Counted from the stretch's first letter, positions 45,464-56,235 are shown. The stretch is 64,000 nt of DNA from an uncultured Acidobacteriota bacterium (GCA_963804995.1 CAWDSK010000001.1:384001-448000); one strand, 5' to 3'. Numbers and translations are program-made. Notes: generated from the letters alone by a model not told the origin.

Positions 45464-45614
45464 TCGCTGGTCCCCTCAACATGCCGACATGGCACCACCT
45501 CAACCACTACATGCGCTCCAGTGTATGCGCCGCTCGGGGTGGTCACAAACTGTGACCACCTGTTTCGTGAAGTGCCGTTCCCTAACCCCTAATCCCGAGC
45601 CCCTAACCCCGATC

Positions 45615-45833
45615 TCACCACTCATCGCGCAGCTTTCTCTGCTCTGCGAGGGCGTCACCCTCCCACTGAAGCTTTCCTACCACATCAGCGAAATTGTATT
45701 TGGACCCGTTGGGCTTTGGCGTGCTGCCCACCACCAGGACGAGTTCCACGGCGCCAGCCGGGAGTTCCACCGGCACATCCAGCCGCAACCGCCCGTCCGG
45801 CCCCACCTCACCTTTAGTCTTCACGACCTGCAT
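45615..45833 (-). CDS. Small antitoxin-like hypothetical protein
   Basis: GGAGG RBS; VGPDGRLRLDVP...QRKLRDEW; no toxin gene follows. Confidence 0.6.
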   Translation of the reverse strand: MQVVKTKGEVGPDGRLRLDVPVELPAGAVELVLVVGSTPKPNGSKYNFADVVGKLQWEGDALAEQRKLRDEW

Positions 45834-46117
45834 AGGACGCCCTCCCCGCGCGCGCCAACGGACTCACGCTTGGATTGAGTGTACCACGGGGCCCGGGAAG
45901 TCTATAGTTGACAGTCGAAAGTTGAAAGTCAAGCCGCGCCCTAACCACGAGCCCACCGGGAATGGGATTCGCCCTGTCCACTGCCCCAGTCCCCAGCACC
46001 TCTCCTTCCCGAACCCCTAATCCCGAATCCCTATTCCCTGTATTTCCCATGCTATGAATGTGGATACGCGATGAAGAGCCGCACCGGAACGCAAAATGCG
46101 CGTACCTGTGCGTTACC

Positions 46118-46857
46118 AACTGCAAGGCATTAGAAAGACTCCCCTCCTGGATCAGGAGGGGTGGCGCGCCGAGCGCCGGGGTGGTCGATCAGAAGAAGGA
46201 GCCTACCGCGTTACCTACTTGCCGGTTGACCGCGAGGGCTGCCTTTCTTGTGTTTAACTATCCACTGACCACTGACAACTAACCACTGCCGTTTTGACCG
46301 GCCACAAATTTCATGCGCCGAAAGGCATTGGCGCGCTGTACGTTCGTCGCAAATCGCCATTTTCGCCATTGGTCTACGGCGGGCATCAAGAGCGCAACCG
46401 GCGCGGTGGCACGGAAAGCGTGCCACTAATTGCGGGAATGGGGAAAGCTGCCGAACTGGCCCGCAAACACTTGCCGGACTATGAGCAGAAAGTGCGCCCG
46501 TTGAGGGACGAACTTGAGGAAGGTATCTTAAGTTCTATTCCCAATACGGAATTGAACGGACACAAAACGCAGCGGATTGCCAACACGACAAACATCACTT
46601 TTCACGGCATCGAATCCGAAGCGCTGCTGATCTTGCTCGATAAGGAAGGCATCTGTGCATCGTCCGGCTCAGCGTGCCTTGCCGACTCCGACGAGCCCTC
46701 GCACGTGATTAAGGCGATGAAGCCGGAGGCCATAGCGTCGCGACAAATGATTCGGTTCTCAATTGGTGCCGCCACGGCCAGAGAGGGAATCGAAGTGGTG
46801 GTCAACACCGTAAAGTGCCAGGCGGCTGCTTTGCGCGACGTGTCGTCGCCGCATTGA
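46118..46857 (+). pseudogene. Cysteine desulfurase (dndA/iscS-like) fragments including the C-terminal half
   Basis: NCKALER, a REP insertion, AYRVTYLPVDREG, a gap, then TGHKFHAPKGIG (PLP Lys), GGHQE, SSGSAC (catalytic Cys), IRFS. Confidence 0.85.
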
Positions 46858-46919
46858 AGGAAGATTAGGGGAGTTATCACCCGGTCGCAGCTCCGGCGAT
46901 TTCTCGCGCCCCGGCATGC

Positions 46920-47993
46920 TCAGCCCTTCGCCATCGCGATTCGGCTCCGCGCCAGCCGGACCGCTTCGTGCAGTTTGCGCTCTAATTCCTTCTTCGGCAA
47001 CAACTCTGTCCAGTAGCTGGCCACGTGAATACCGCTCTTTTCGAGTTCCAGCAGGGCGACGTGCTCCGTACTCTTGCCGGCGCAAAGGATCATTCCCAAC
47101 GGTGCAGCCTCCTGTGGTTCCGCCGCGTACCGTTTCAGCCACCCCAGGTAGAGTTCCATCTGCCCTTTGTCCGCGGCTTCAAACTGCCCGATTTTCAATT
47201 CGATGGCGATCAGGCGACAGAGCTTGCGGTGATAGAAAAGCAGGTCGAGGTGGTAGTCACGGTCGTCAATCTGCATGCGCAACTGGCGGGCTACAAAGCA
47301 GAACCCCACCCCCAGCTCCAAGATGAACGACTCCATCTCCCGCAGAATGGCCGACTCCAAATCCTTCTCCGCATAGGTATCTTTCAACCCCAGAAAATCG
47401 AGGACGTAGGGATCGCGGAAGACCAGGTCGGGTGTGAGCTTGTATTCGTCACGCAACTCCCTAAGCTCACGGCGGATCAGTTTGTCCGGCTTTTTGGAAA
47501 GCGCCGTGCGCTCGTAAAGCATCGACTGGATTTTCTGCTGGAGGGTACGTGTGCTCCAGTTCTCCACCCGGCACATTTCGGTGTAGAAATCCCGCTTGAG
47601 ATGATCCTGAATAGGAATGAGCCGCAGGAAGTGGGTCCAGCCCAATTGTCGTAGCAGCGATACGACAATTTCCCGGTCCGGGTAGGCCTCCGCGAACTGG
47701 ATCATCCGGCGCAGGTTCTTCTCGCCGAATCCCCGGCCGAAATCCCTCTCCAATTGTGCACTCAGTGCGGACACAATCTGTTCGCCATACTCCGCGCGTT
47801 TTTCCTTTAGGATGTCTTGCCGGATGCGCTGCCCCACATGCCAGTAAAGCGTGGTTAGCGCCGCGTCTACCGCGCGGGCGGCGCCTTGGCGGGCTTCTGC
47901 AATCAGTTCCCGCACGTCGGCCAGCAACGCCGCGAGCCCTTGGGGGCGTAAAGCCAGGGCCTTCTTTCTCCCGGGCGGTTTTCGTCCTATCAT
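46920..47993 (-). CDS. YhcG/DUF1016 PD-(D/E)XK nuclease family protein
   Basis: YWHVG, GFGEKNLRRM, LGWTH, RDPYVLDFL, DLLFYHR, AIELK, GQMELYL. Confidence 0.93.
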   Translation of the reverse strand: MIGRKPPGRKKALALRPQGLAALLADVRELIAEARQGAARAVDAALTTLYWHVGQRIRQDILKEKRAEYGEQIVSALSAQLERDFGRGFGEKNLRRMIQFAEAYPDREIVVSLLRQLGWTHFLRLIPIQDHLKRDFYTEMCRVENWSTRTLQQKIQSMLYERTALSKKPDKLIRRELRELRDEYKLTPDLVFRDPYVLDFLGLKDTYAEKDLESAILREMESFILELGVGFCFVARQLRMQIDDRDYHLDLLFYHRKLCRLIAIELKIGQFEAADKGQMELYLGWLKRYAAEPQEAAPLGMILCAGKSTEHVALLELEKSGIHVASYWTELLPKKELERKLHEAVRLARSRIAMAKG

Positions 47994-48168
47994 GGCGCAA
48001 GCTCCAAGCTATAACGCGGCCAGCACCCGGCTTTTGCCAGCGCGGGCTTGCCTTGCAGTTTACCTAATCACCAAACACTAACCACTGTCAACTGCCGTGG
48101 AAGAAGACCCGCACAGGAGCGCGAAATGCGCGCACCCGCGCGCTACAAATTCGGCCCTGGTAACCCCG

Positions 48169-48540
48169 GGCTACCGGGTTACCTACCTGCCGGTTGACCG
48201 CGAGGGCTTGCTGCTTTCTACCGGTTCAACTGACCACTAACCACTAATCACTGACCACTGCCTTTCCGATGTGGGCGAATAACGAAACGGGTGTGTTGTT
48301 CCCTGTCGAGTCAATCGCGGAAATTTGCCAGTCGCGGGGCGTGCCGTATCACTGCGACGCGGTGCAAGCAGCGGGCAAGGTGGAGATTGATGTGCAAAAG
48401 ATCCCGGCGGACTACCTTTCGCTAACCGGCCACAAGTTCCACGCGCCGAAAGGCATTGGCGCACTCTACGTCCGTCGCAAATCACCATTTTCGCCATTGG
48501 TCTACGGCGGGCATCAAGAACGGAACCGGCGCGGCGGCAT
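48169..48540 (+). pseudogene. Second, partly redundant cysteine desulfurase fragment set
   Basis: GYRVTYLPVDREGLL, a gap, then MWANNETG...HCDAVQAAGK...TGHKFHAPKG...RRGG; the last ~115 bp duplicate 46296-46410. Confidence 0.85.
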
Positions 48541-48563
48541 AGGGGCGGTACCCGGCGAAAAGT

Positions 48564-49088
48564 CTATTTCGACCATTTGAAGGCTAGGACGGTGATCGCC
48601 CAAGGCAATATGGCAAACATCATTGCGGTATAGGCACGCTTCAAGTACTTAAACTTATTATTGATGATCTCTGAATTTCGGTGGCATTGCTCCAAGAGAT
48701 CTTGCAAATGCTGATCAGTCGTTCGGCATGACCAGCACTGACTGAATTCGTTAAACGAGTTGCCAGCGATCGACCCGAAAAACAATAACGATTTAGACGG
48801 ACCTCTGGTGCGTGGGTAGTTGGCGCAGTGAATAAAGGTGAAGCCGGTCGCTAGCATACCTATGGTCGTCGCGAAGGCAACGACCGCCCACCACCTCCAT
48901 TTTTCGGGCTCTGGTGCAAGTGACACTGCAACTCCTAGCATTCCAGTGTGCATTCCCAAGACAACCGAAATTTTGGTGTCCACTTTGCTACCCCACTGAA
49001 GCACTCTATCGAGGTTTTTCTCAGCGTACGCGATCTGTTCGCTCAGGGGCCATCCGGCAACGACTTCGGCATGTACATTATTTTTCAT
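48564..49088 (-). CDS. Pycsar transmembrane effector-like protein (PycTM/DUF5706)
   Basis: KVDTKISVVL, two TM helices, YPRTRGPSKSLLFFGSIA, DLLEQ...NSEIINNKF, third TM helix; start taken at ATG 49088. Confidence 0.85.
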   Translation of the reverse strand: MKNNVHAEVVAGWPLSEQIAYAEKNLDRVLQWGSKVDTKISVVLGMHTGMLGVAVSLAPEPEKWRWWAVVAFATTIGMLATGFTFIHCANYPRTRGPSKSLLFFGSIAGNSFNEFSQCWSCRTTDQHLQDLLEQCHRNSEIINNKFKYLKRAYTAMMFAILPWAITVLAFKWSK

Positions 49089-49117
49089 AAGACCAAACTG
49101 ATAGAGCAGTGGGTTTG

Positions 49118-49621
49118 CTAGTCCAATTCTGCGATTCGCTGTCTGAACAATTCCACGAGCTCGTCTGAAATCCAAGCGCCCGCGCGGATCATTTCTTCTA
49201 AGATTCTGATTCCATCGTTCCCCGTAATTTCCCCAATCTCAATTGCGTATTCCAGCACTCCGATTGCGCCGGCGACCGGAATTCCAAATTCCTCCGCGCA
49301 ATTCCGAGCCAGCTTGTCGTTTGTCAAAACAGCGGCCCCTCTAGACCATGCCACCACAATGGCACCAGATTCACCGAGCCCCAGTCCGGGTCTGCCCTCA
49401 CGCAAACGTTGAAATCTCTCCCAGTCCTCCTCGCTGACCAGAGCTACCACCTCCGCACTTGGCATAGCTATGGAAGCACGATCGAGCTCATCTTGCACGA
49501 AGTCGGAAACCAAGAGACGCCCACTAAAAACTCGCTCGAGTGTGTCGAGCGAGCCGGAACGCTGAAAGTCCACGACAACGCTTGAGTCAAGCGACACGCG
49601 GGTTATGCTAAGCCGGTGCAA
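49118..49621 (-). CDS. PIN-domain protein (DUF3368-like)
   Basis: VSLDSSVVVD, VQDEL, LGLGESGAI, LTNDKLAR, GAIGVL; start uncertain (TTG at 49621 proposed). Confidence 0.82.
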   Translation of the reverse strand: MHRLSITRVSLDSSVVVDFQRSGSLDTLERVFSGRLLVSDFVQDELDRASIAMPSAEVVALVSEEDWERFQRLREGRPGLGLGESGAIVVAWSRGAAVLTNDKLARNCAEEFGIPVAGAIGVLEYAIEIGEITGNDGIRILEEMIRAGAWISDELVELFRQRIAELD

Positions 49622-50738
49622 AATCCGTTTCCCTTCTCCATTCCTGGGTCTTAGCCCGCGCTTCGCTGACATTTACGCTAAGTAGTTCGGCGAGTTTTCC
49701 GAGGGACACCATACTGTTGAGAGCGGCCTTTCTCGCGAGATGCGCGAAGCGGCTTGACCTCTCCCAAGCTTCGATCATCGTCTCGTCGAGCGGTACAAAC
49801 TCCTTTCTAGGATCGCTCTGTCGCTTTTCCACCTCCTCCATTAGTCGCCGCTGGTCATCGTCTGAGATTAAGCGGAGGTCCCGAACTCTGCGCAACATCA
49901 TCTGCGCACTGACTTGGAAATATTGCTTCAAGAAAACTATGTCTTCCAAGCCAACGGTCTTGTCCCCAACGTCCCGATGTAAAACGTCTCGAAGTCCCAC
50001 TTCCGGAACTAGAAACGAAGCCGCGAAACAGTCTGCCATCTTCTCGGGCACACTGTCCTTTGGTAGACCGCCGGTCGGTGCGGCACTGCTATACATAGGC
50101 CGATGCATCAGCAGGTGTCCGCATTCGTGCGCTAATGAGAAGACTTGGCGCTCTACCGTGTTGGCGCTGTTGACTAAGATACAGAGACCATAGTTAGAAG
50201 AGTACGCGGATAACGCAAAAACCTCATCTCCCTCCATCTTGTGCCGTAAGATCCTGACCCCCTGCTCATCGAGCAACTTAAAGATGTTTTCAATCGGATC
50301 ACGCTGGCCGAGTCCTAGGCGTTCACGCTCAGAAAGTGCAACTTGGACCGCGTAATCGAACGGCTTCGAATGCGCCCCGGGTCCGCCAGAGTAGTCGGGA
50401 AGCTGGAGTAGATTTTCGGCTCCGACAATTTCCTCTAGCTCACGATACGCTTTGGAATGCCTTTCAAATGATAAGCGGGCGTTCCCGGGAGCGGTCGCCT
50501 CCGCGACAGCCCGGTACAATAACGCCATAGTATCTTGGTCCCCTCTGAAAAAATCAGCGACCGGACAACCAAGAAGGCGAGAAGCTACCAGCAACTTGCT
50601 GCTGTCGATGGCCGTATGACCATTCTCGATGGCGCTGACCGTGGCCCGGGAGAGTCCGATTTTAGCGGCAAACTCCTCTTGGGATAGACCCGCTAACTCC
50701 CTTGCTCTCTTTAGATTTCGTGCGATGATCTCTTTCAA
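49608..50738 (-). CDS. XRE HTH fused to ImmA/IrrE (COG2856) zinc metallopeptidase
   Basis: ARELAGLSQEEFAAKIGLSRATVSAIENG; FSLAHECGH (HExxH); EKMADCFAASFLVP; TTG at 50738 has a GGAGG RBS. Confidence 0.92.
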   Translation of the reverse strand: MKEIIARNLKRARELAGLSQEEFAAKIGLSRATVSAIENGHTAIDSSKLLVASRLLGCPVADFFRGDQDTMALLYRAVAEATAPGNARLSFERHSKAYRELEEIVGAENLLQLPDYSGGPGAHSKPFDYAVQVALSERERLGLGQRDPIENIFKLLDEQGVRILRHKMEGDEVFALSAYSSNYGLCILVNSANTVERQVFSLAHECGHLLMHRPMYSSAAPTGGLPKDSVPEKMADCFAASFLVPEVGLRDVLHRDVGDKTVGLEDIVFLKQYFQVSAQMMLRRVRDLRLISDDDQRRLMEEVEKRQSDPRKEFVPLDETMIEAWERSSRFAHLARKAALNSMVSLGKLAELLSVNVSEARAKTQEWRRETDFAPA

Positions 50739-50760
50739 TTTCCCTCCAGTGTATAAAATC

Positions 50761-50827
50761 CTTGACATATAATTGATCTACTTGTTGTGATTGTCAAGTT
50801 AATTCGACATTAGGAGTATCTTATGTC
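50761..50827. promoter_or_regulatory. Divergent promoter/operator region
   Basis: CTTGACA (50761-50767) and TGTCAAG (50792-50798) are inverted, giving TTGACA on both strands; further GACAT (50806-50810)/ATGTC (50823-50827) pair around the AGGAG RBS. Confidence 0.6.
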
Positions 50828-52367
50828 TTGGAACTTTGATCGAAGCAAGAAACGAGTCGAGGCAGAAGCGAAGCGCCTAGCGCATGCGGGCATCAGCGTC
50901 AAGCCCCTCACCCGCGAAATGGACTTAACCAACCTCTCTCCCACAGAAGCTAGGCAAGTTAACGGCGTCCATCTCTATTCAAACGTGGAGAATCTGGAAG
51001 AACTGCTAACGTCCGAGGCCCTTCGAAAGAATAATTTCAGGGCATTGCACAGATTCTTTCAAGTCTTCAGGAGTGAACAGCGCCGCATCATTCAAAACGT
51101 CTTCGAAGGGGACAAGATCCAAGTTCAGGGCCCAAAGTTTCACGGGCTAATTTTCAAGCCTTATGGGAAGGACTCTGAGATCGCTTGGCGCTCCATTCTC
51201 TGCTCAAGTGCTTTACACCTTTTAGCGGTAAGGGCGCTTCCCGAGGTGTTTCCGGGATACCCACCGATCGTCTCTGCTGCAGGTCTAGAGCTGGGAAAAA
51301 CCGTCGTAGCAAACATCGGGATGCGGGGCGAGAGAGAGCTCATCAGCGTTGGTCGACCAGCAAATTACGCAGCTAAGATTTTCGATAAAGACGCGCCAAT
51401 CACCGTCGGCGAGAACCTCTACTCAACGCTCACGAAGGACCGGCAGTCCTTATTCGGGGCAGCCGAAGGGGTTTATCGGCTAGACCAGTCAGCCGTTGAT
51501 TCCCTAGGGGACGTGCTTCGGGACGAGGGATTCTCCTGGAGTGTCGAATCGTCCGTTAGGCGCCTCAGCCGTGAGATTGAGGTGCTTCCACTTGACAACA
51601 TCTTGGTGGAGGAAGCCCGTGAGAAAATCAATCTCGAAAGGCTCGGGCCGAAGCGCGCAAAGGTTTGCGTGGGCGCAACAGTATTTGTGGACATTGACGG
51701 CTACACCCGATTTGTCGATTCCCTGTTGGACGATGTCGACAAACTTGGGAAGGCTGTTCAGTTGCTGCATCTATTCCGCTATGAGTGGCGCGAAGTAACC
51801 GAGAATGATTTCGACGCGATCGAAATTCAGCATCAAGGGGACCGCTTGCAAGCATTGTTGCACGTACCTACGGATGACGAAGAACTAATGATGGAGAGGG
51901 CTGTTGATTTAGCCATCAGCTACAACTCTTCGGTCGATGAGGTTTTGAGTAAACACTGCGAGAAAGACCGGGCACTGCGTGTGGCGATTGGCTGTGATAT
52001 CGGTAAGGCGTTGGTGTCGAGAATTGGCGTACGGGGTGATCTAGACGCGACATGCCTCGGTAGGTCGGCACTGCGTGCAGAGATTTTGCAGGTTGGATCT
52101 AAGAGTGGCGAGATTTCGATAACCGAGAAGCTTCGCCACGCAATCAGCGAGCAGTCCATCTCAGAGTTATTCAAATACTGTGAGTCGACCGATGCATACG
52201 TAGCAAAGGACGTTACCTGGACAACAATTGAAGACGCGGAGCACGTCCGAGCGTATAAGTCCAGGTCTGCTGCGGTCGTAACGGGGGCCGGTGCAATTGC
52301 GTTCAGGGTCCCAGCGGAGGCGACGGACCGGCCACTCAAGATCACGCGTCCGTGGTCCGATTTATGA
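50823..52367 (+). CDS. Tandem class III nucleotidyl cyclase (two cyclase domains), PycC-like
   Basis: Domain 1 HLYSNVEN...QVQGPKFH...GLELGK...SVGRPANYAAK; domain 2 VFVDIDGYT...QHQGDRLQA...IGCDIGK...CLGRSALRAE. Confidence 0.85.
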   Translation: MSWNFDRSKKRVEAEAKRLAHAGISVKPLTREMDLTNLSPTEARQVNGVHLYSNVENLEELLTSEALRKNNFRALHRFFQVFRSEQRRIIQNVFEGDKIQVQGPKFHGLIFKPYGKDSEIAWRSILCSSALHLLAVRALPEVFPGYPPIVSAAGLELGKTVVANIGMRGERELISVGRPANYAAKIFDKDAPITVGENLYSTLTKDRQSLFGAAEGVYRLDQSAVDSLGDVLRDEGFSWSVESSVRRLSREIEVLPLDNILVEEAREKINLERLGPKRAKVCVGATVFVDIDGYTRFVDSLLDDVDKLGKAVQLLHLFRYEWREVTENDFDAIEIQHQGDRLQALLHVPTDDEELMMERAVDLAISYNSSVDEVLSKHCEKDRALRVAIGCDIGKALVSRIGVRGDLDATCLGRSALRAEILQVGSKSGEISITEKLRHAISEQSISELFKYCESTDAYVAKDVTWTTIEDAEHVRAYKSRSAAVVTGAGAIAFRVPAEATDRPLKITRPWSDL

Positions 52368-53035
52368 ATGTGCTTCCATGGTACAGAATCTCGCGTCATC
52401 GGCTTGAATCCGAACGCACCCTGCTGCGTAGCCTTCGATACTTCATTCCTGAAAGGCAGTACTTCGACACTCTAAAAAGACTAAACGTTGTTGGCATACT
52501 CATTTACTCTCGAATGCGTTCCGGCAGGGTCGAGCGGTTTCGGGTCCGCATAGAATACCCCGCTAGGTTTCCAAACTTTCCACAGCAGGTCTATGATCAT
52601 GACAAGGTGTTTCAGCCTGGGCACGAGGGCCACTTGCCCGACCACCGCCTCTGTCTGACCCTCCCCGAACGGCGAGAGTTTTCGACTGGTACCGAAGGGC
52701 TAACTGAAGAGGTTTTGGGCGCATCCTTAATCTGGCTTGATAAGCGTCTTATATTCGAGCGAAATGGTGGTAAATGGCCTGGGCTTGACGAGCGCCACGG
52801 CCTCTTTGCGAAAATCGATTTTATACTTGAGGCGACGGGTCTTTCGGAGGATGGACGGGCACGGAGCTGGATGGAGGACACTCTCGCGGCTGCGGCGGCG
52901 AGACGCGGGTTCGATATCGAATTGTATTCGCCGTGTCCGTGCGGCAGCGGCGAGAAAATGAAGTTCTGCCATTTCGACGGGTTCCGTCCCCTGATTAAAT
53001 TACTTCGAGAAGTCTCTCGTCAGGCGAATGGCTAG
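52364..53035 (+). CDS. Prokaryotic E2/UBC-like protein with C-terminal SEC-C motif
   Basis: RVRIEYPARFPNFPQQVY...GHLPDHRLCL (UBC-like His/Cys region); CPCGSGEKMKFCH; ATGA overlap with the cyclase stop. Confidence 0.72.
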   Translation: MNVLPWYRISRHRLESERTLLRSLRYFIPERQYFDTLKRLNVVGILIYSRMRSGRVERFRVRIEYPARFPNFPQQVYDHDKVFQPGHEGHLPDHRLCLTLPERREFSTGTEGLTEEVLGASLIWLDKRLIFERNGGKWPGLDERHGLFAKIDFILEATGLSEDGRARSWMEDTLAAAAARRGFDIELYSPCPCGSGEKMKFCHFDGFRPLIKLLREVSRQANG

Positions 53036-53973
53036 GGCGACTGGAAACTGTGGCGCTGGCGGTGCCATGTGAGAGATTCTCGGTCGGGCAAGTAATGCTG
53101 GTTTAGTGGGCGGAGAATTGACTTACCCGCACGTGGCTTCAGGAGATGCGCTGCATCTCCACGTTCATCAAAGCGATCCTCTGCCACGAGTATTGTGTAA
53201 TCGTTGCTGATCGACCAAAACCCGTGATCGAAAAGCCAGTGGGCTGTTTTTGAAAGCGCGATGCCATTCGTGGGGTGGTTGCTGCCACCTTGAGTGAGCT
53301 GATGGATGTGGGCGGCGTCTAGGGCCGTCTTGCCGTTCAGCGCGATCATCCGGTATTGGGTTAGGGCACAGGTGTAATCGTATGCCGGAAGCACGCGCAC
53401 TGCGAACTTCGCATCCCGTTGACTCTCGGTCTCGTGCCGCGGCATAAAGCGGGTGGCATCCGCTCCAATTACGTCATCGGGAGGAACTGGGAGATCGACA
53501 AGACTGTAAAGCTCCGCCCTTTCTTCCGGCCGAAAATATTTTGCGATCAGAGTACGCCGGGCCAGCGAACGAAACTCCCCCCACCCCAGACAAACGAGAA
53601 AAGATACGTCCAACTGGGCGATTACAGCCGCGTGCCGATCGGGAGCGGGCCGCCCTGCAGCATCAAGCGCTTGCCAGAAGCCTTCAGACTTGAGGTGATA
53701 AAAAGGGAAGTTTATATCAGGCTTGGTCTTCCTGCGGGGCGCTACTACTCGCCAATAGGAGCTGTAGCGGAAAGCCAGATCACCATCTTTTCTGAGAAGC
53801 GCGCCGTCGAGTTTGCCTTGTTCCACAATATCGCAGACGACGAGAAGCAAAAGGGGTTTCTGCGGCGCGTCCCCGAGCGCCGGATGTGCTTTGTCTGGTC
53901 GCAGAGAATTCAGCCGCTCAAGCCAACGCGTCCATTCGGGGGATGAGGTTGAGAGGAGAGCACCCGTGGCCAT
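53032..53973 (-). CDS. HNH endonuclease with N-terminal sulfur-binding-domain-like region (putative phosphorothioate-dependent restriction enzyme)
   Basis: APQKPLLLL and INFPFYHLKSEGFW; AYDYTCALT...DAAHI...NGIALSKTAHWLFDHG. Confidence 0.82.
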   Translation of the reverse strand: MATGALLSTSSPEWTRWLERLNSLRPDKAHPALGDAPQKPLLLLVVCDIVEQGKLDGALLRKDGDLAFRYSSYWRVVAPRRKTKPDINFPFYHLKSEGFWQALDAAGRPAPDRHAAVIAQLDVSFLVCLGWGEFRSLARRTLIAKYFRPEERAELYSLVDLPVPPDDVIGADATRFMPRHETESQRDAKFAVRVLPAYDYTCALTQYRMIALNGKTALDAAHIHQLTQGGSNHPTNGIALSKTAHWLFDHGFWSISNDYTILVAEDRFDERGDAAHLLKPRAGKSILRPLNQHYLPDRESLTWHRQRHSFQSP

Positions 53974-54798
53974 TTACCTCTCCATTGCGGAGGTCCGATT
54001 TAAATCGTCCTTCAGGATATTCAGCAAATCGCCGGGGAGGCCGTGGGCGCGGTGGCTTTCGCTGTATTCCTCCACCTTGGCAACCATGCGCCGCAGAGTT
54101 TCAACATTAATGCCTTTCTCGGCGGCGACTTTGTTTTCAATTTCTCGCAAACGGCCGAGTTCAGTCAAGTCGGCGTTCATCATCACACCCTTCTGCCGGT
54201 TGACGATGCGCGCCACGCCGCGCCCATCGTCCGGGTCGCGTGCGGCTTTCCACATTTGCTGGATCAGTAGGAGCTCCTCGGGACTGATGAGCTGTAATTG
54301 AACCTCTTCCTGCAACTTTAGTAATTGGGTCAGCAGTTCACGACGGGCGGTGATCAAGAGTGGCCCGGAACCCTGATTACCGTTCATACGGCGGGTGTCG
54401 CGCTTGCCGTTGGCGGGATCGCGGTAGAACAGTAGCGTTTCGCGGAATTCGATCAGTTTCTCCATGCGCTCGTCGCCCGAAGCCAGCAATCCTTCGCTGG
54501 CCCGGTCACGGTCAACCACGGTGCACGTCCAGCACCCGAAACGGCTGTTGCCACAACTGGGGGTGCTGGTGTCAATCTGGATGGGGTACTCGCCGTTCGA
54601 GGCGCTGGCGTAAAGCTTGTAGAGGGGGCGATTGCCTCGGGGGTTGGGGTTCTGTCGGCCCAAACGTCCTCGGTCGAGAGGAATTCATTCGATACCCAGA
54701 CGCGGGGCAAGTCAGGATGCCTCCGCAATCCATTGCGCGTTTGGCGGGCCGCCATGGTTTGGGCGCGGGTGGAGCTTTCGGCGCGGCGCGCGCCGAGG
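53974..54798 (-). pseudogene. dndC: dndC 3' fragment
   Basis: GARRAESSTRAQTM, LYKLYASAS, SCGNSRFGCWTCTVVDRD; frameshifted after EDVWA. Confidence 0.85.
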
Positions 54799-54802
54799 AC
54801 TA

Positions 54803-54870
54803 GGATCGCCTCGGGCGCGGTCAACGCGTAAATTCGAGAATTTGGCAAGCCAGTAATCAGGTCTGGTCAT
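54803..54870 (-). pseudogene. 5' stub of a second SBD-HNH gene
   Basis: MTRPDYWLAKFSNLRVDRARGDP parallels WLERLNSLRPDKAHPALGD of the intact gene, then joins dndC sequence. Confidence 0.5.
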
Positions 54871-54908
54871 GGGGGTCGCCGCGGCGACCGCTCGGCCATG
54901 GGGCATTT

Positions 54909-55217
54909 CTAGAGCCCCTGGGTCAATATCCCTGCTACATCACGGCTGCCGTGCAAAATGGTGACCACTTGCAAGGGCTTGGTTTCAGGCCGGTAGACGA
55001 TCAGGTAGGAGTACACAGAAAAGAAGCGCACATTGGCAGAGGTCAAATCATGCCGCCAGTGGCCCGCGCCGGGGAAACTGGCCAGGTAGACACACTTGGT
55101 TCGAATGACGGATTCAACACGGTCGGCTGCTTCGAGGCTGACTTGCTGCTTGACGTAACGCCAGATATCCACCAGGTCACGGGCAGCCTGAGGGGCCAGG
55201 ACATATCGCGCGGTCAT
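54909..55217 (-). CDS. ParE/RelE family toxin
   Basis: LAPQAARDLVDIWRY, FPGAGHWRHDL, YLIVYR, ILHGSRD. Confidence 0.9.
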   Translation of the reverse strand: MTARYVLAPQAARDLVDIWRYVKQQVSLEAADRVESVIRTKCVYLASFPGAGHWRHDLTSANVRFFSVYSYLIVYRPETKPLQVVTILHGSRDVAGILTQGL

Positions 55218-55474
55218 TCCGGTTGAGCTTTCAGTCGATCGAGGTGCTCGTCCAGTTGGTCCTCGGGAATCCCTTCCCCCCGATCAAGTTCTCCGATTCC
55301 GGTTTGGATCTTGGCGTCCACGGCTTGGCGATTGGCCATTAACCATTCATCCCGCTCATGCAGCACTTCCAGCGCCCTTTCGATTACATCGTCGGGGCTT
55401 TGATAAGCTCCGGAACGCAGGGCCTCCGCGATGCGGTTTTCCTGTTCGGGCTTCAGTTGAATCGTCATGGCCAA
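55214..55474 (-). CDS. ParD-like antitoxin
   Basis: SGAYQSPDDVIERAL, KIQTGIGELDRGEG; ATGA overlap with the toxin. Confidence 0.85.
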   Translation of the reverse strand: MAMTIQLKPEQENRIAEALRSGAYQSPDDVIERALEVLHERDEWLMANRQAVDAKIQTGIGELDRGEGIPEDQLDEHLDRLKAQPE

Positions 55475-55520
55475 TTCTCCCTGTGACCACTACTCTAACA
55501 CAACGCGTAAAAGAACTCCT

Positions 55521-56235
55521 TCTGGATGGGGCACTCGCCGTTCGAGGCGCTGGCGTAAAGCCTGTAGAGGGGGCGATTGCCTCAGGGGTTGGGGTTCTGT
55601 CGGCCCAAACGTCTTCGGTTGAGAGGAATTCAATGGGATTCGATACCCAGACACGGGGCAAGTCAGGATGCCGCCGCAAGCCGTTGCGCGTTTGGCGGGC
55701 CGCCATGGTTTGGGCGCGGGTGGAGCTTTCGGCGCGGCGCGCTCCCAGGTGCAGAATGGCCTCGCCCCAATGTCCAACCCGCTGCTTCACCAGGGCGTTC
55801 ACCGGGTCAATCTTCATCCTCTGCGTGCACCAGCGGAAGGTGCGGTTGGGGGGTGGGTAGCCGCGTCCAATGATGTTCACCCAAAAGGATTCTTCCATGA
55901 GCGGCTTCAGCAGGTTGGCGTCAATGTTCAGGCTGTGCTGCTCGGAGCACTTGCGCATGCGGTCCAGCGTGCCTTCAATCATTTCGGCAATGGCGGGAAT
56001 CTCCACGCGCGTGTCCGTGCAAAGGACCGAGATGGGCTTCTTGCGCTGCTCGGCGGGAATGGATAGGACGGCGTCAAAAATCAGCGACGCCGGCATGGTG
56101 CCGTTCCTTCGCGGGATTTACCCTGAGTGAAACGAATGGGCTCAGGACAGGCTCTTGCCACCGCTAAAGCCGACCAGCCAGGGCCGCTCGTCTTCCGGGT
56201 AGAGTTGGCGGAGGGAAGTCTTGAAAAACATCGTC
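55521..56235 (-). pseudogene. dndC: dndC 5' fragment (PAPS-reductase fold), broken after SGGK and after EDVWA
   Basis: RPWLVGFSGGK; CTDTRVE; SFWVNIIGRGYPPPNRTFRWCTQRMKIDP; GARRAESSTR. Confidence 0.88.

Follow-up and report, generated by a model that had tools for sequence, protein, structure and literature searches.

What does the five-gene locus at positions 48564-53035 of a 64,000-nt stretch of DNA from an uncultured Acidobacteriota bacterium (GCA_963804995.1, CAWDSK010000001.1:384001-448000; the whole stretch is hereafter called the window) encode: one defence system, two systems that merely adjoin, or a housekeeping signalling cluster? Its genes form two divergent operons, one coding for a tandem class III cyclase (PycC) and an E2-like protein with a SEC-C zinc knuckle, the other for a helix-turn-helix (HTH) protein fused to an M78-type peptidase (HTH-M78), a PIN protein and a candidate membrane effector of the PycTM family. 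We consider it likely that the locus is an E2-only Pycsar abortive-infection system, resembling the 'type II short' form of CBASS (an antiphage signalling system based on cyclic oligonucleotides), joined head-to-head with an HTH-M78/PIN module of toxin-antitoxin type; this module probably gates Pycsar. The features of the locus are as follows.

48564-49175, minus strand: PycTM gene, intact open reading frame (ORF); limits of the longest ORF, from TTG 49175, with ATG 49088 as the likely start
49118-49672, minus strand: PIN gene, intact ORF
49608-50768, minus strand: HTH-M78 gene, intact ORF of 386 aa; with the likely start TTG 50738, 49608-50738 and 376 aa
50739-50822, between the divergent operons: control region, 84 nt, common to both
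50823-52367, plus strand: pycC, tandem cyclase gene, intact ORF, 514 aa
52364-53035 (ORF 52352/52364-53035), plus strand: E2/SEC-C gene, intact ORF, 223 aa

The ORF listing agrees with the five intact genes that an earlier, sequence-only reading of this DNA had placed here, and the ATGA overlap that it described between the pycC stop and the E2 start is present (GAT TTA TGA / ATG AAT GTG). Its statements that the locus is less rich in guanine and cytosine (GC) than its surroundings and that the neighbouring dnd genes are wrecked were likewise borne out: the GC content is 0.49-0.56 over 48500-53000 compared to 0.56-0.64 in the flanks, and DndC as well as a cysteine desulfurase in the flanks are each found in two pieces. 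Furthermore, the families that it had assigned to all five products agree with Pfam and PADLOC matches, complemented by a fold model for the E2 part and a profile for SEC-C. PycTM, PycC and E2 are each single-copy in the host genome, with only one match per family.

The cyclase, its effector and the E2-like protein

The cyclase matches the PADLOC PycC model PDLC00765 over its full length (2.4e-90, residues 1-512), and single-domain PycC profiles of PADLOC match it in two stretches. Searched against the PDB, a family profile of 40 homologues reached 9.8e-54 with 6yii_A (514 aa) over residues 2-493 compared to 3.7e-12 with the single-domain 7r65_A, and the N- and C-terminal halves of the cyclase cross-match in relatives at 24-32% identity. 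Neither the cyclase nor the E2-like protein had a family match in Pfam and NCBIfam at E <= 0.01. According to the accessible part of PMC11224242, 6YII is the clade-A cyclase PaPycC, clade A is defined by two consecutive cyclase domains, and clades A-D make cyclic UMP (cUMP); judged from these matches, the window cyclase is a clade-A, two-domain PycC. In the family alignment, D290, D292 and D340, the aspartates that bind metal, are invariant and confined to the C-terminal domain, and N181 and K185, the Asn and Lys of the G..aN.AaK motif, are invariant and confined to the N-terminal domain. Because the two sets of residues sit in opposite domains, PycC would be a pseudo-heterodimer with one predicted active site.

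Two genes away from pycC and on the opposite strand, 48564..49175 encodes a product that matches Pfam PF18967 (4.3e-14; 53.2 bits compared to a cut-off of 27.2) as well as the PADLOC models for the 2TM effector (3.6e-46) and PycTM (3.9e-31), and that is, on the strength of these matches, a PycTM-family three-helix membrane effector. Since its relatives align only from residue 30-46 on, translation probably starts at ATG 49088. The view of the sequence-only reading that the locus is of Pycsar type and that its membrane protein is a Pycsar effector is thus supported, both by the full-length PADLOC match of PycC and by effector profile matches above the cut-off. By homology, infection would lead the tandem PycC to make a cyclic mononucleotide at its single composite site, and this nucleotide would open the PycTM membrane effector, so that the infected cell is stopped. 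The product would be cUMP if clade-A homology holds, while E2-linked cyclases, treated as a subclade, are predicted to prefer ATP in the available text of a preprint (bioRxiv 10.64898/2026.08.12.744502).

The product of the second rightward gene matches the PADLOC E2 model at 6.3e-13, and its AlphaFold model, made from an alignment of 33 sequences, has a mean predicted local distance difference test score (pLDDT) of 90.5. A Foldseek search of the PDB with this model gave no match at E <= 0.001, and all 50 rows listed were E2 or UEV proteins, at E 2e-3 and worse. VIA-align superposed the model on UFC1 (Z 9.9, root-mean-square deviation (rmsd) 3.2, 126 aligned), on the E2 domain of Cap2 (7tqd_B; Z 9.8, rmsd 3.3, 119 aligned) and on Serratia SmE2 of the CdnG-E2 complex (8hsb_B; Z 9.2, rmsd 3.8, 131 aligned, 19% identity). 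H90 and C97 of a ..GH......LCL motif, with Cys97 being of catalytic type, are invariant in the 33 sequences, as are the zinc-knuckle residues C191, C193, C202 and H203, and a comparison of the family profile with the SecA SEC-C peptide gave a match at 1e-4. According to the model and these profiles, the protein combines an E2 fold with a SEC-C zinc knuckle at its C-terminus. Neither Pfam nor PADLOC gave an E1 or JAB family match for any of the five locus genes, and with 223 aa the E2 is too short for an E1 domain; the form is thus E2-only.

The likely target of this protein is the cyclase itself. The C-terminal tail of the window PycC reads LKITRPWSDL and conforms to a motif, T-R-[PN]-[WY]-[GSAC]-x1-4, that stands behind a variable linker and is present in 38 of 39 distinct tails from the loci surveyed below and, among the 104 database homologues with >=480 aa, in 102. 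W/Y is followed by G, S, A or C in 37/38 locus tails and 97/102 database homologues. A similar ending, in which Ser or Ala and a short tail come after His or Tyr, is found in 5 of 7 proteobacterial cyclases (four with a preceding Pro), and is lacking in those of Bradyrhizobium and Mesorhizobium. A predicted PycC-E2 complex scored 0.75, while the best of 3 controls scored 0.00; among solved complexes, 116 of 157 attain the mark for this score, as do 2 of 215 mismatched pairs, counts that are only rough, since the alignments were our own. Agreement between the runs extends to at least 94% of contacts, the partner pLDDT is at least 87, and the predicted interface comprises cyclase residues 465-493 and 503-514 together with E2 residues 86-90, 97-100 and 138-149, so that the cyclase tail would lie at the E2 catalytic cysteine. 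Binding of the E2-like protein to the C-terminal region of the cyclase is therefore supported by conservation and a fold model.

In layout, the likeness to E2-CBASS (type II short; SmCdnG-SmE2, 8HSB/8YJY) is strong: there, too, a stand-alone E2 adjoins the signal-making enzyme, and the folds are alike. As described in the accessible portion of PMC12948482, the E2 of E2-CBASS removes the residues beyond a C-terminal glycine of CdnG and becomes covalently linked to CdnG, an E1 not being needed, and the C-terminal helix and sheet of CdnG recruit the E2; recruitment by the C-terminal region of the enzyme, which reaches the cysteine, is thus shown for CdnG and predicted here. The signal enzyme in E2-CBASS is a nucleotidyltransferase of the cGAS/DncV-like kind (CD-NTase), whereas that of the window is a class III cyclase, the tail of which has P/N-[WY]-[GSAC] instead of a conserved glycine, and the window E2 carries approximately 70 extra residues with the SEC-C zinc knuckle. 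We infer that Cys97 acts on this non-glycine tail, and, like its counterpart in E2-CBASS, which acts on CdnG, the E2 would probably tether or prime the cyclase without an E1. To our knowledge, E1-free processing or tethering by an E2 through the tail of an enzyme has so far been shown for CD-NTases only.

Recurrence of the E2-linked Pycsar unit

Relatives were surveyed in 11 genome loci, all from Acidobacteriota metagenome-assembled genomes, and in 62 metagenome loci (denoted by L numbers), the ORFs of which were clustered; a single-protein search of genome contigs gave no relative, and an alignment-based search was then used. Dereplication at 95% PycC identity resulted in 59 groups, the window included, and the following counts cover the evaluable groups. 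E2 lies directly downstream of the cyclase in 40 of 41 groups (the miss being L001), and PycTM follows E2, in the same orientation, in 22 of 34, the 12 groups lacking a same-strand PycTM being L001, L003, L007, L008, L010, L012, L018, L026, L051, L054, L067 and the window. In L007, L018, L054 and L067, a PycTIR gene adjoins E2 in place of PycTM; only in the window, L012 and L051 does PycTM lie upstream behind PIN. Counting either side, PycTM is present in 15 of 21 loci. A divergent HTH-M78 gene was found in 8 of 37 groups, with L014 retaining a remnant only, and PIN accompanies it in 7 of these 8 and never occurs in surveyed Pycsar loci without HTH-M78. Other HTH/M78 forms occupy the same position in L030 (a split form) and on Methylorubrum pCMU01. 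These locus counts point to a canonical unit of PycC-E2-PycTM (or PycTIR) on one strand, of which the window represents a rearranged form. The sequence-only reading had regarded its five-gene locus as atypical and had named the neighbourhoods of cyclase homologues as the place to look for the same partners: E2 and PycTM do recur, the pairing of cyclase and E2 being the norm, but HTH-M78 is limited to a minority, and it is the fusion with a toxin-antitoxin-like pair and the move of PycTM that are unusual.

Within 6 kb, PycTIR was identified in 5 of 19 groups and a single-domain PycC in 6 of 19. Where a second Pycsar pair of PycTIR and single-domain PycC (PADLOC PDLC00766, ~1e-100) adjoins PycC-E2-PycTM, two cyclases and two effector types are present per island; such loci are L019, L020/L021, L030, L033/L034, L043, L063, L001 and L049. 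Furthermore, it should be noted that some relatives carry split genes, namely PycC in L051 (3249-4840) and L010 (6392-7937) and E2 in L008 (9610-10081), which represent frameshifts, decay or assembly errors.

Tandem cyclases with ~25% identity to that of the window were also found on plasmids (13 records). An Acinetobacter plasmid encodes the cyclase, E2, an 'E2 domain-associated cysteine-rich protein' and TIR; a Methylorubrum plasmid a divergent ImmA/IrrE gene, then cyclase, E2 and TIR; and a Mesorhizobium plasmid the full E1-E2/JAB form, with cyclase, E1-E2, JAB and a TIR gene alongside. On a Bradyrhizobium plasmid, the cyclase and an 'E2 domain-containing protein' are followed by DUF2235; this DUF2235-annotated protein (L075 3039-4325) stands in the effector position, is not recognised by PADLOC and could be an effector of another kind. 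On P. aeruginosa (L074 5533-6306) and Xanthomonas (L112 5024-5899) plasmids, an unannotated intact E2 ORF overlaps or abuts the pycC stop and matches PADLOC PDLC00868 at 8.6e-109 and 4.1e-83, respectively; an E2 gene beside pycC has thus been missed in at least 2 plasmid gene tables. Because of these ORFs, 'canonical' clade-A Pycsar may also be E2-linked. Of these two ORFs, Pfam was applied to that of P. aeruginosa only, which matches E2-ntca and E2-Crich; these Pfam families do not match the window E2, and our own E2 profile does not match the proteobacterial plasmid E2s.

Compared to clade-A Pycsar (PaPycC, 6YII), the window locus therefore shares a two-domain cyclase with a PycTM-family effector and, with the P. 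aeruginosa plasmid pycC, an E2 ORF that overlaps the stop codon. It differs in that its cyclase is only ~26% identical to the Pseudomonas cyclase, in that its E2 has a SEC-C knuckle whereas the proteobacterial E2s have E2-ntca and E2-Crich, and in that a toxin-antitoxin pair precedes its effector, which is encoded on the opposite strand. E2-linked forms are already named in print, in each case according to the accessible parts of the sources: a 'Type II Pycsar' with fused E2-E1 (bioRxiv 10.1101/2024.11.21.623953), E1, E2 and DUB accessories of Pycsar (bioRxiv 10.1101/2023.09.04.556158) and an E2-linked 'Pycsar-like-4' subclade described from genomics (bioRxiv 10.64898/2026.08.12.744502). As far as these descriptions allow a comparison, Type II Pycsar and Pycsar-like-4 also have a cyclase tightly coupled to an E2-like gene, but the window has E2 only, with neither a fused E2-E1 nor a JAB gene, and the regulators reported for Pycsar-like-4 in the available text of the latter preprint are WYL and WYL-Pol-beta, whereas those of the window are HTH-M78/PIN.

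That the cluster serves housekeeping cyclic-nucleotide signalling instead of defence is highly improbable in light of this survey. The distribution of the locus is patchy, neighbouring genes vary between relatives, and some relatives reside on plasmids beside integrases; the window locus itself has a lower GC content, sits in an island together with nucleases, a ParDE pair and dnd genes that are broken, and gives full-length matches to defence-derived models of PycC, PycTM and E2.

The HTH-M78/PIN pair and the shared control region

The HTH-M78 product matches Pfam HTH_3 (4.6e-16) and Peptidase_M78 (2e-16), 14 PADLOC RmrA models (the best at 2.1e-38 over residues 17-370), PADLOC capP (2.5e-17) and capH (5.6e-5), and its HExxH motif is invariant (H204, E205, H208). 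The analogy drawn by the sequence-only reading between CBASS accessories and both the E2 and the HTH-peptidase stands. TTG 50738, behind a GGAGG Shine-Dalgarno sequence and conserved in relatives, is most likely the start, not 50768. By sequence, HTH-M78 is an XRE-HTH fused to an M78 (ImmA/IrrE) zinc peptidase, its C-terminal segment being conserved, and we presume the protein to be both repressor and antitoxin. Residues 334-366 (..SLGKLAELL..) align weakly with the UPF0175 core (hhalign probability 68%, E 4.7e-5, 33 columns), and Pfam recognises UPF0175 in 1 of 5 HTH-M78 C-terminal tails (E 0.066), a likeness that is suggestive only; the window locus has no separate UPF0175 antitoxin gene. 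Like CapH and CapP, the protein would bring together an HTH repressor and an M78 peptidase at the promoter of an immune operon, although these are separate genes there and one fused 376-aa chain here, as in RmrA.

The PIN protein matches PADLOC PDC-S70 (2.5e-17) and, below the cut-off of 27.3 bits, Pfam DUF3368 (1.2e-4, 22.3 bits). The acidic residues D36, E62, E101 and D119 are present, with E62 and E101 invariant in 16 aligned sequences, and the protein is presumably a DUF3368-type nuclease and toxin. Among 401 genomes of the phylum, 26 have distant PIN relatives, and a UPF0175 antitoxin ORF lies directly upstream in 20 of 24 scanned. The window pair may depart from the UPF0175/DUF3368-PIN type of toxin-antitoxin, in which the usual antitoxin is UPF0175, and perhaps also from RosmerTA, with which it shares an RmrA-type HTH and zinc-peptidase antitoxin, in having a DUF3368-type PIN as partner: no RmrT model of PADLOC matched at E <= 0.01, only PDC-S70 models. 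RmrT toxins are diverse, so that the pair may still belong to RosmerTA.

The sequence-only reading had raised the possibility that PIN is a second effector driven by the cyclic nucleotide, giving one signal a membrane and an RNase output. While PIN does lie between the regulator and PycTM in one operon, and while some relatives carry two effectors of one signal kind (PycTM and PycTIR), family profile scans found no domain in PIN that binds cyclic nucleotide monophosphates. Its relatives are toxins that pair with UPF0175 or with HTH-M78 with no cyclase nearby, and its absence from the surveyed Pycsar loci that lack HTH-M78 speaks against this role as well, so that we regard a second output as very unlikely and have abandoned it.

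A more serious question is whether the pair belongs to Pycsar at all. HTH-M78 relatives are present in 54 of 401 genomes of the phylum; among 29 other HTH-M78 loci that were fetched, 24 have a downstream ORF, 15 of which match our own PIN profile (Pfam gave 2 weak PIN matches only for the same 24 partners), and none of the 29 has PycC or E2 within ~1.5 kb on each side. Since HTH-M78/PIN pairs occur without a cyclase nearby, the pair is, as judged by profile matches, a widespread stand-alone module of toxin-antitoxin type. It could therefore be that an E2-type Pycsar and a Rosmer-like HTH-M78/PIN defence module are two independent neighbours without cross-talk, and that the position of PycTM reflects a neutral rearrangement. 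In addition to the distribution of the pair, this would fit with the RmrA match, which places HTH-M78 in the RosmerTA antitoxin family, with the 29 of 37 E2-Pycsar loci that lack the pair, and with the common clustering of defence genes, the window being an island with other defence genes. We nevertheless consider such independence unlikely, as four features of the arrangement argue against it.

First, HTH-M78/PIN remains head-to-head with pycC throughout deep branches in which PycC identity is 50-73%, and all genes diverge in step. Second, the distance between the two divergent start codons is too short for the promoters not to overlap. Third, the 84 nt between them are shared and hold conserved motifs: 50739-50822 contains TTGACA, 24 nt, TGTCAA, 6 nt and then TCGACA, and TTGACA, ~24 nt, TGTCAA, ~6 nt and a third TTGACA-like copy are found in most HTH-bearing loci with unrelated spacers (all three copies in 4 of 9 distinct HTH-bearing loci, near-matches only in L054/L059). 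This pattern was not found upstream of pycC in loci without an HTH gene. Fourth, in the window, L012 and L051, the sole PycTM gene comes after PIN in the same orientation, with a gap of 29 nt or an overlap, so that expression of the effector probably depends on the HTH-M78/PIN operon. The right-hand copy of the motif serves as -35 of a leftward promoter-like site (50797..50769, 10/12 matches) and, in our own reading of the aligned regions, the left-hand copy is the -35 for pycC in several relatives; the elements may act as promoters, as operators or as both. For a PycC tree, 23 of 59 groups were set aside for want of an intact ORF reaching 480 aa; on the remaining 36 dereplicated sequences, all intact, the 10 rows that carry HTH require 4 changes, and 0 of 500 shuffles needed as few; since kin share labels, this shows clustering, not co-evolution.

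In a Pycsar system gated by the pair, HTH-M78 would, by the architecture of the locus, repress both divergent promoters from the shared 84-nt region, while its C-terminal part would neutralise the PIN nuclease. A stress or phage cue would then trigger the peptidase, raising expression of pycC-E2 and pycTM and freeing PIN. The accessible part of PMC13373217 reports CapH and CapP regulators beside Pycsar.

Several points weigh against an E2-only Pycsar joined with, and gated by, this module. The HTH-M78 and PIN pairs that are widespread without a cyclase nearby are clearly able to work alone, and most E2-Pycsar loci do without them. Promoter-like sites in the control region are not above shuffles (2 found compared to a mean of 2.8), and the TTGACA repeats could be plain -35 boxes instead of operators; the UPF0175 likeness of the HTH-M78 C-terminus, as described above, is weak. 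With respect to the cyclase, the complex score expresses model confidence from our own alignments, the tail has no conserved glycine (G in 13/38), and therefore the chemistry of CBASS may not carry over. Finally, the available literature differs on the product, cUMP for clades A-D compared to the predicted ATP preference of E2-linked cyclases. For the same locus, a bolder proposal can be made, in which an HTH-M78-UPF0175-like protein, on sensing infection or DNA damage, destroys itself, thereby freeing PIN and de-repressing a Pycsar with a captured effector, and in which a class III cyclase undergoes E1-free processing or tethering by E2 through its non-glycine tail; taken as a whole, we hold this to be tentative and rather doubtful.

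The sequence-only reading had not recognised the combination as a described system. This applies only in part: the E2-Pycsar core is already known, and it is the fusion with the toxin-antitoxin-like pair together with the move of PycTM that is genuinely unusual. HTH-M78/PIN joined to Pycsar, a SEC-C-bearing E2 and the cyclase tail motif were not described in the literature searched, which left many journals uncovered; although E2-linked Pycsar is named in print, no characterised one was found there. With the invariant Cys97, a short conserved cyclase tail and a confident predicted interface, the family offers handles for the bench and allows asking whether ubiquitin-like control extends from CD-NTases to class III cyclases. 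The window variant, moreover, is a natural case of a toxin-antitoxin module and a signalling defence that share a control region and an operon, and thus bears on the wiring of layered immunity.

The surrounding island

A tRNA- or integrase-bounded element was considered as the carrier of the locus and rejected; no integrase was seen adjoining the locus within the window.

Directly after E2, 53032-53973 (minus strand) encodes an HNH endonuclease of the phosphorothioated-DNA-dependent restriction type (NCBIfam NF045808, 1.5e-32; Pfam HNH_2), the stop of which overlaps the E2 stop; the same gene, with 81% identity, follows E2 in L026 and L051. The dnd (phosphorothioation) genes around it are broken, as might be expected if the making of phosphorothioated DNA conflicted with its restriction. 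Beyond it, a ParE/ParD pair (54909-55474) interrupts dndC at 53974-56096 and is flanked by a diverged direct duplication of ~240 nt of dndC (54576-54813 compared to 55521-55764, 91-96% identical).

On the other side of the locus, 46203-48580 contains two partial copies of a class-V aminotransferase gene (dndA/IscS-like), with a duplicated stretch (46203-46411 compared to 48171-48539) that is 91-95% identical. These pieces flank a gene for a YhcG/DUF1016 PD-(D/E)xK nuclease (46920-47993; PADLOC PDC-S02, 1.7e-127), and their order is incompatible with a simple insertion. Further away, short C-rich repeats (CCCTAACCCC-like) were found at 45578-46038, including a 33-nt unit present three times (at 45578, 45592 and 46006); they lie within a stretch of small ORFs, one of which encodes a DUF2283 protein.

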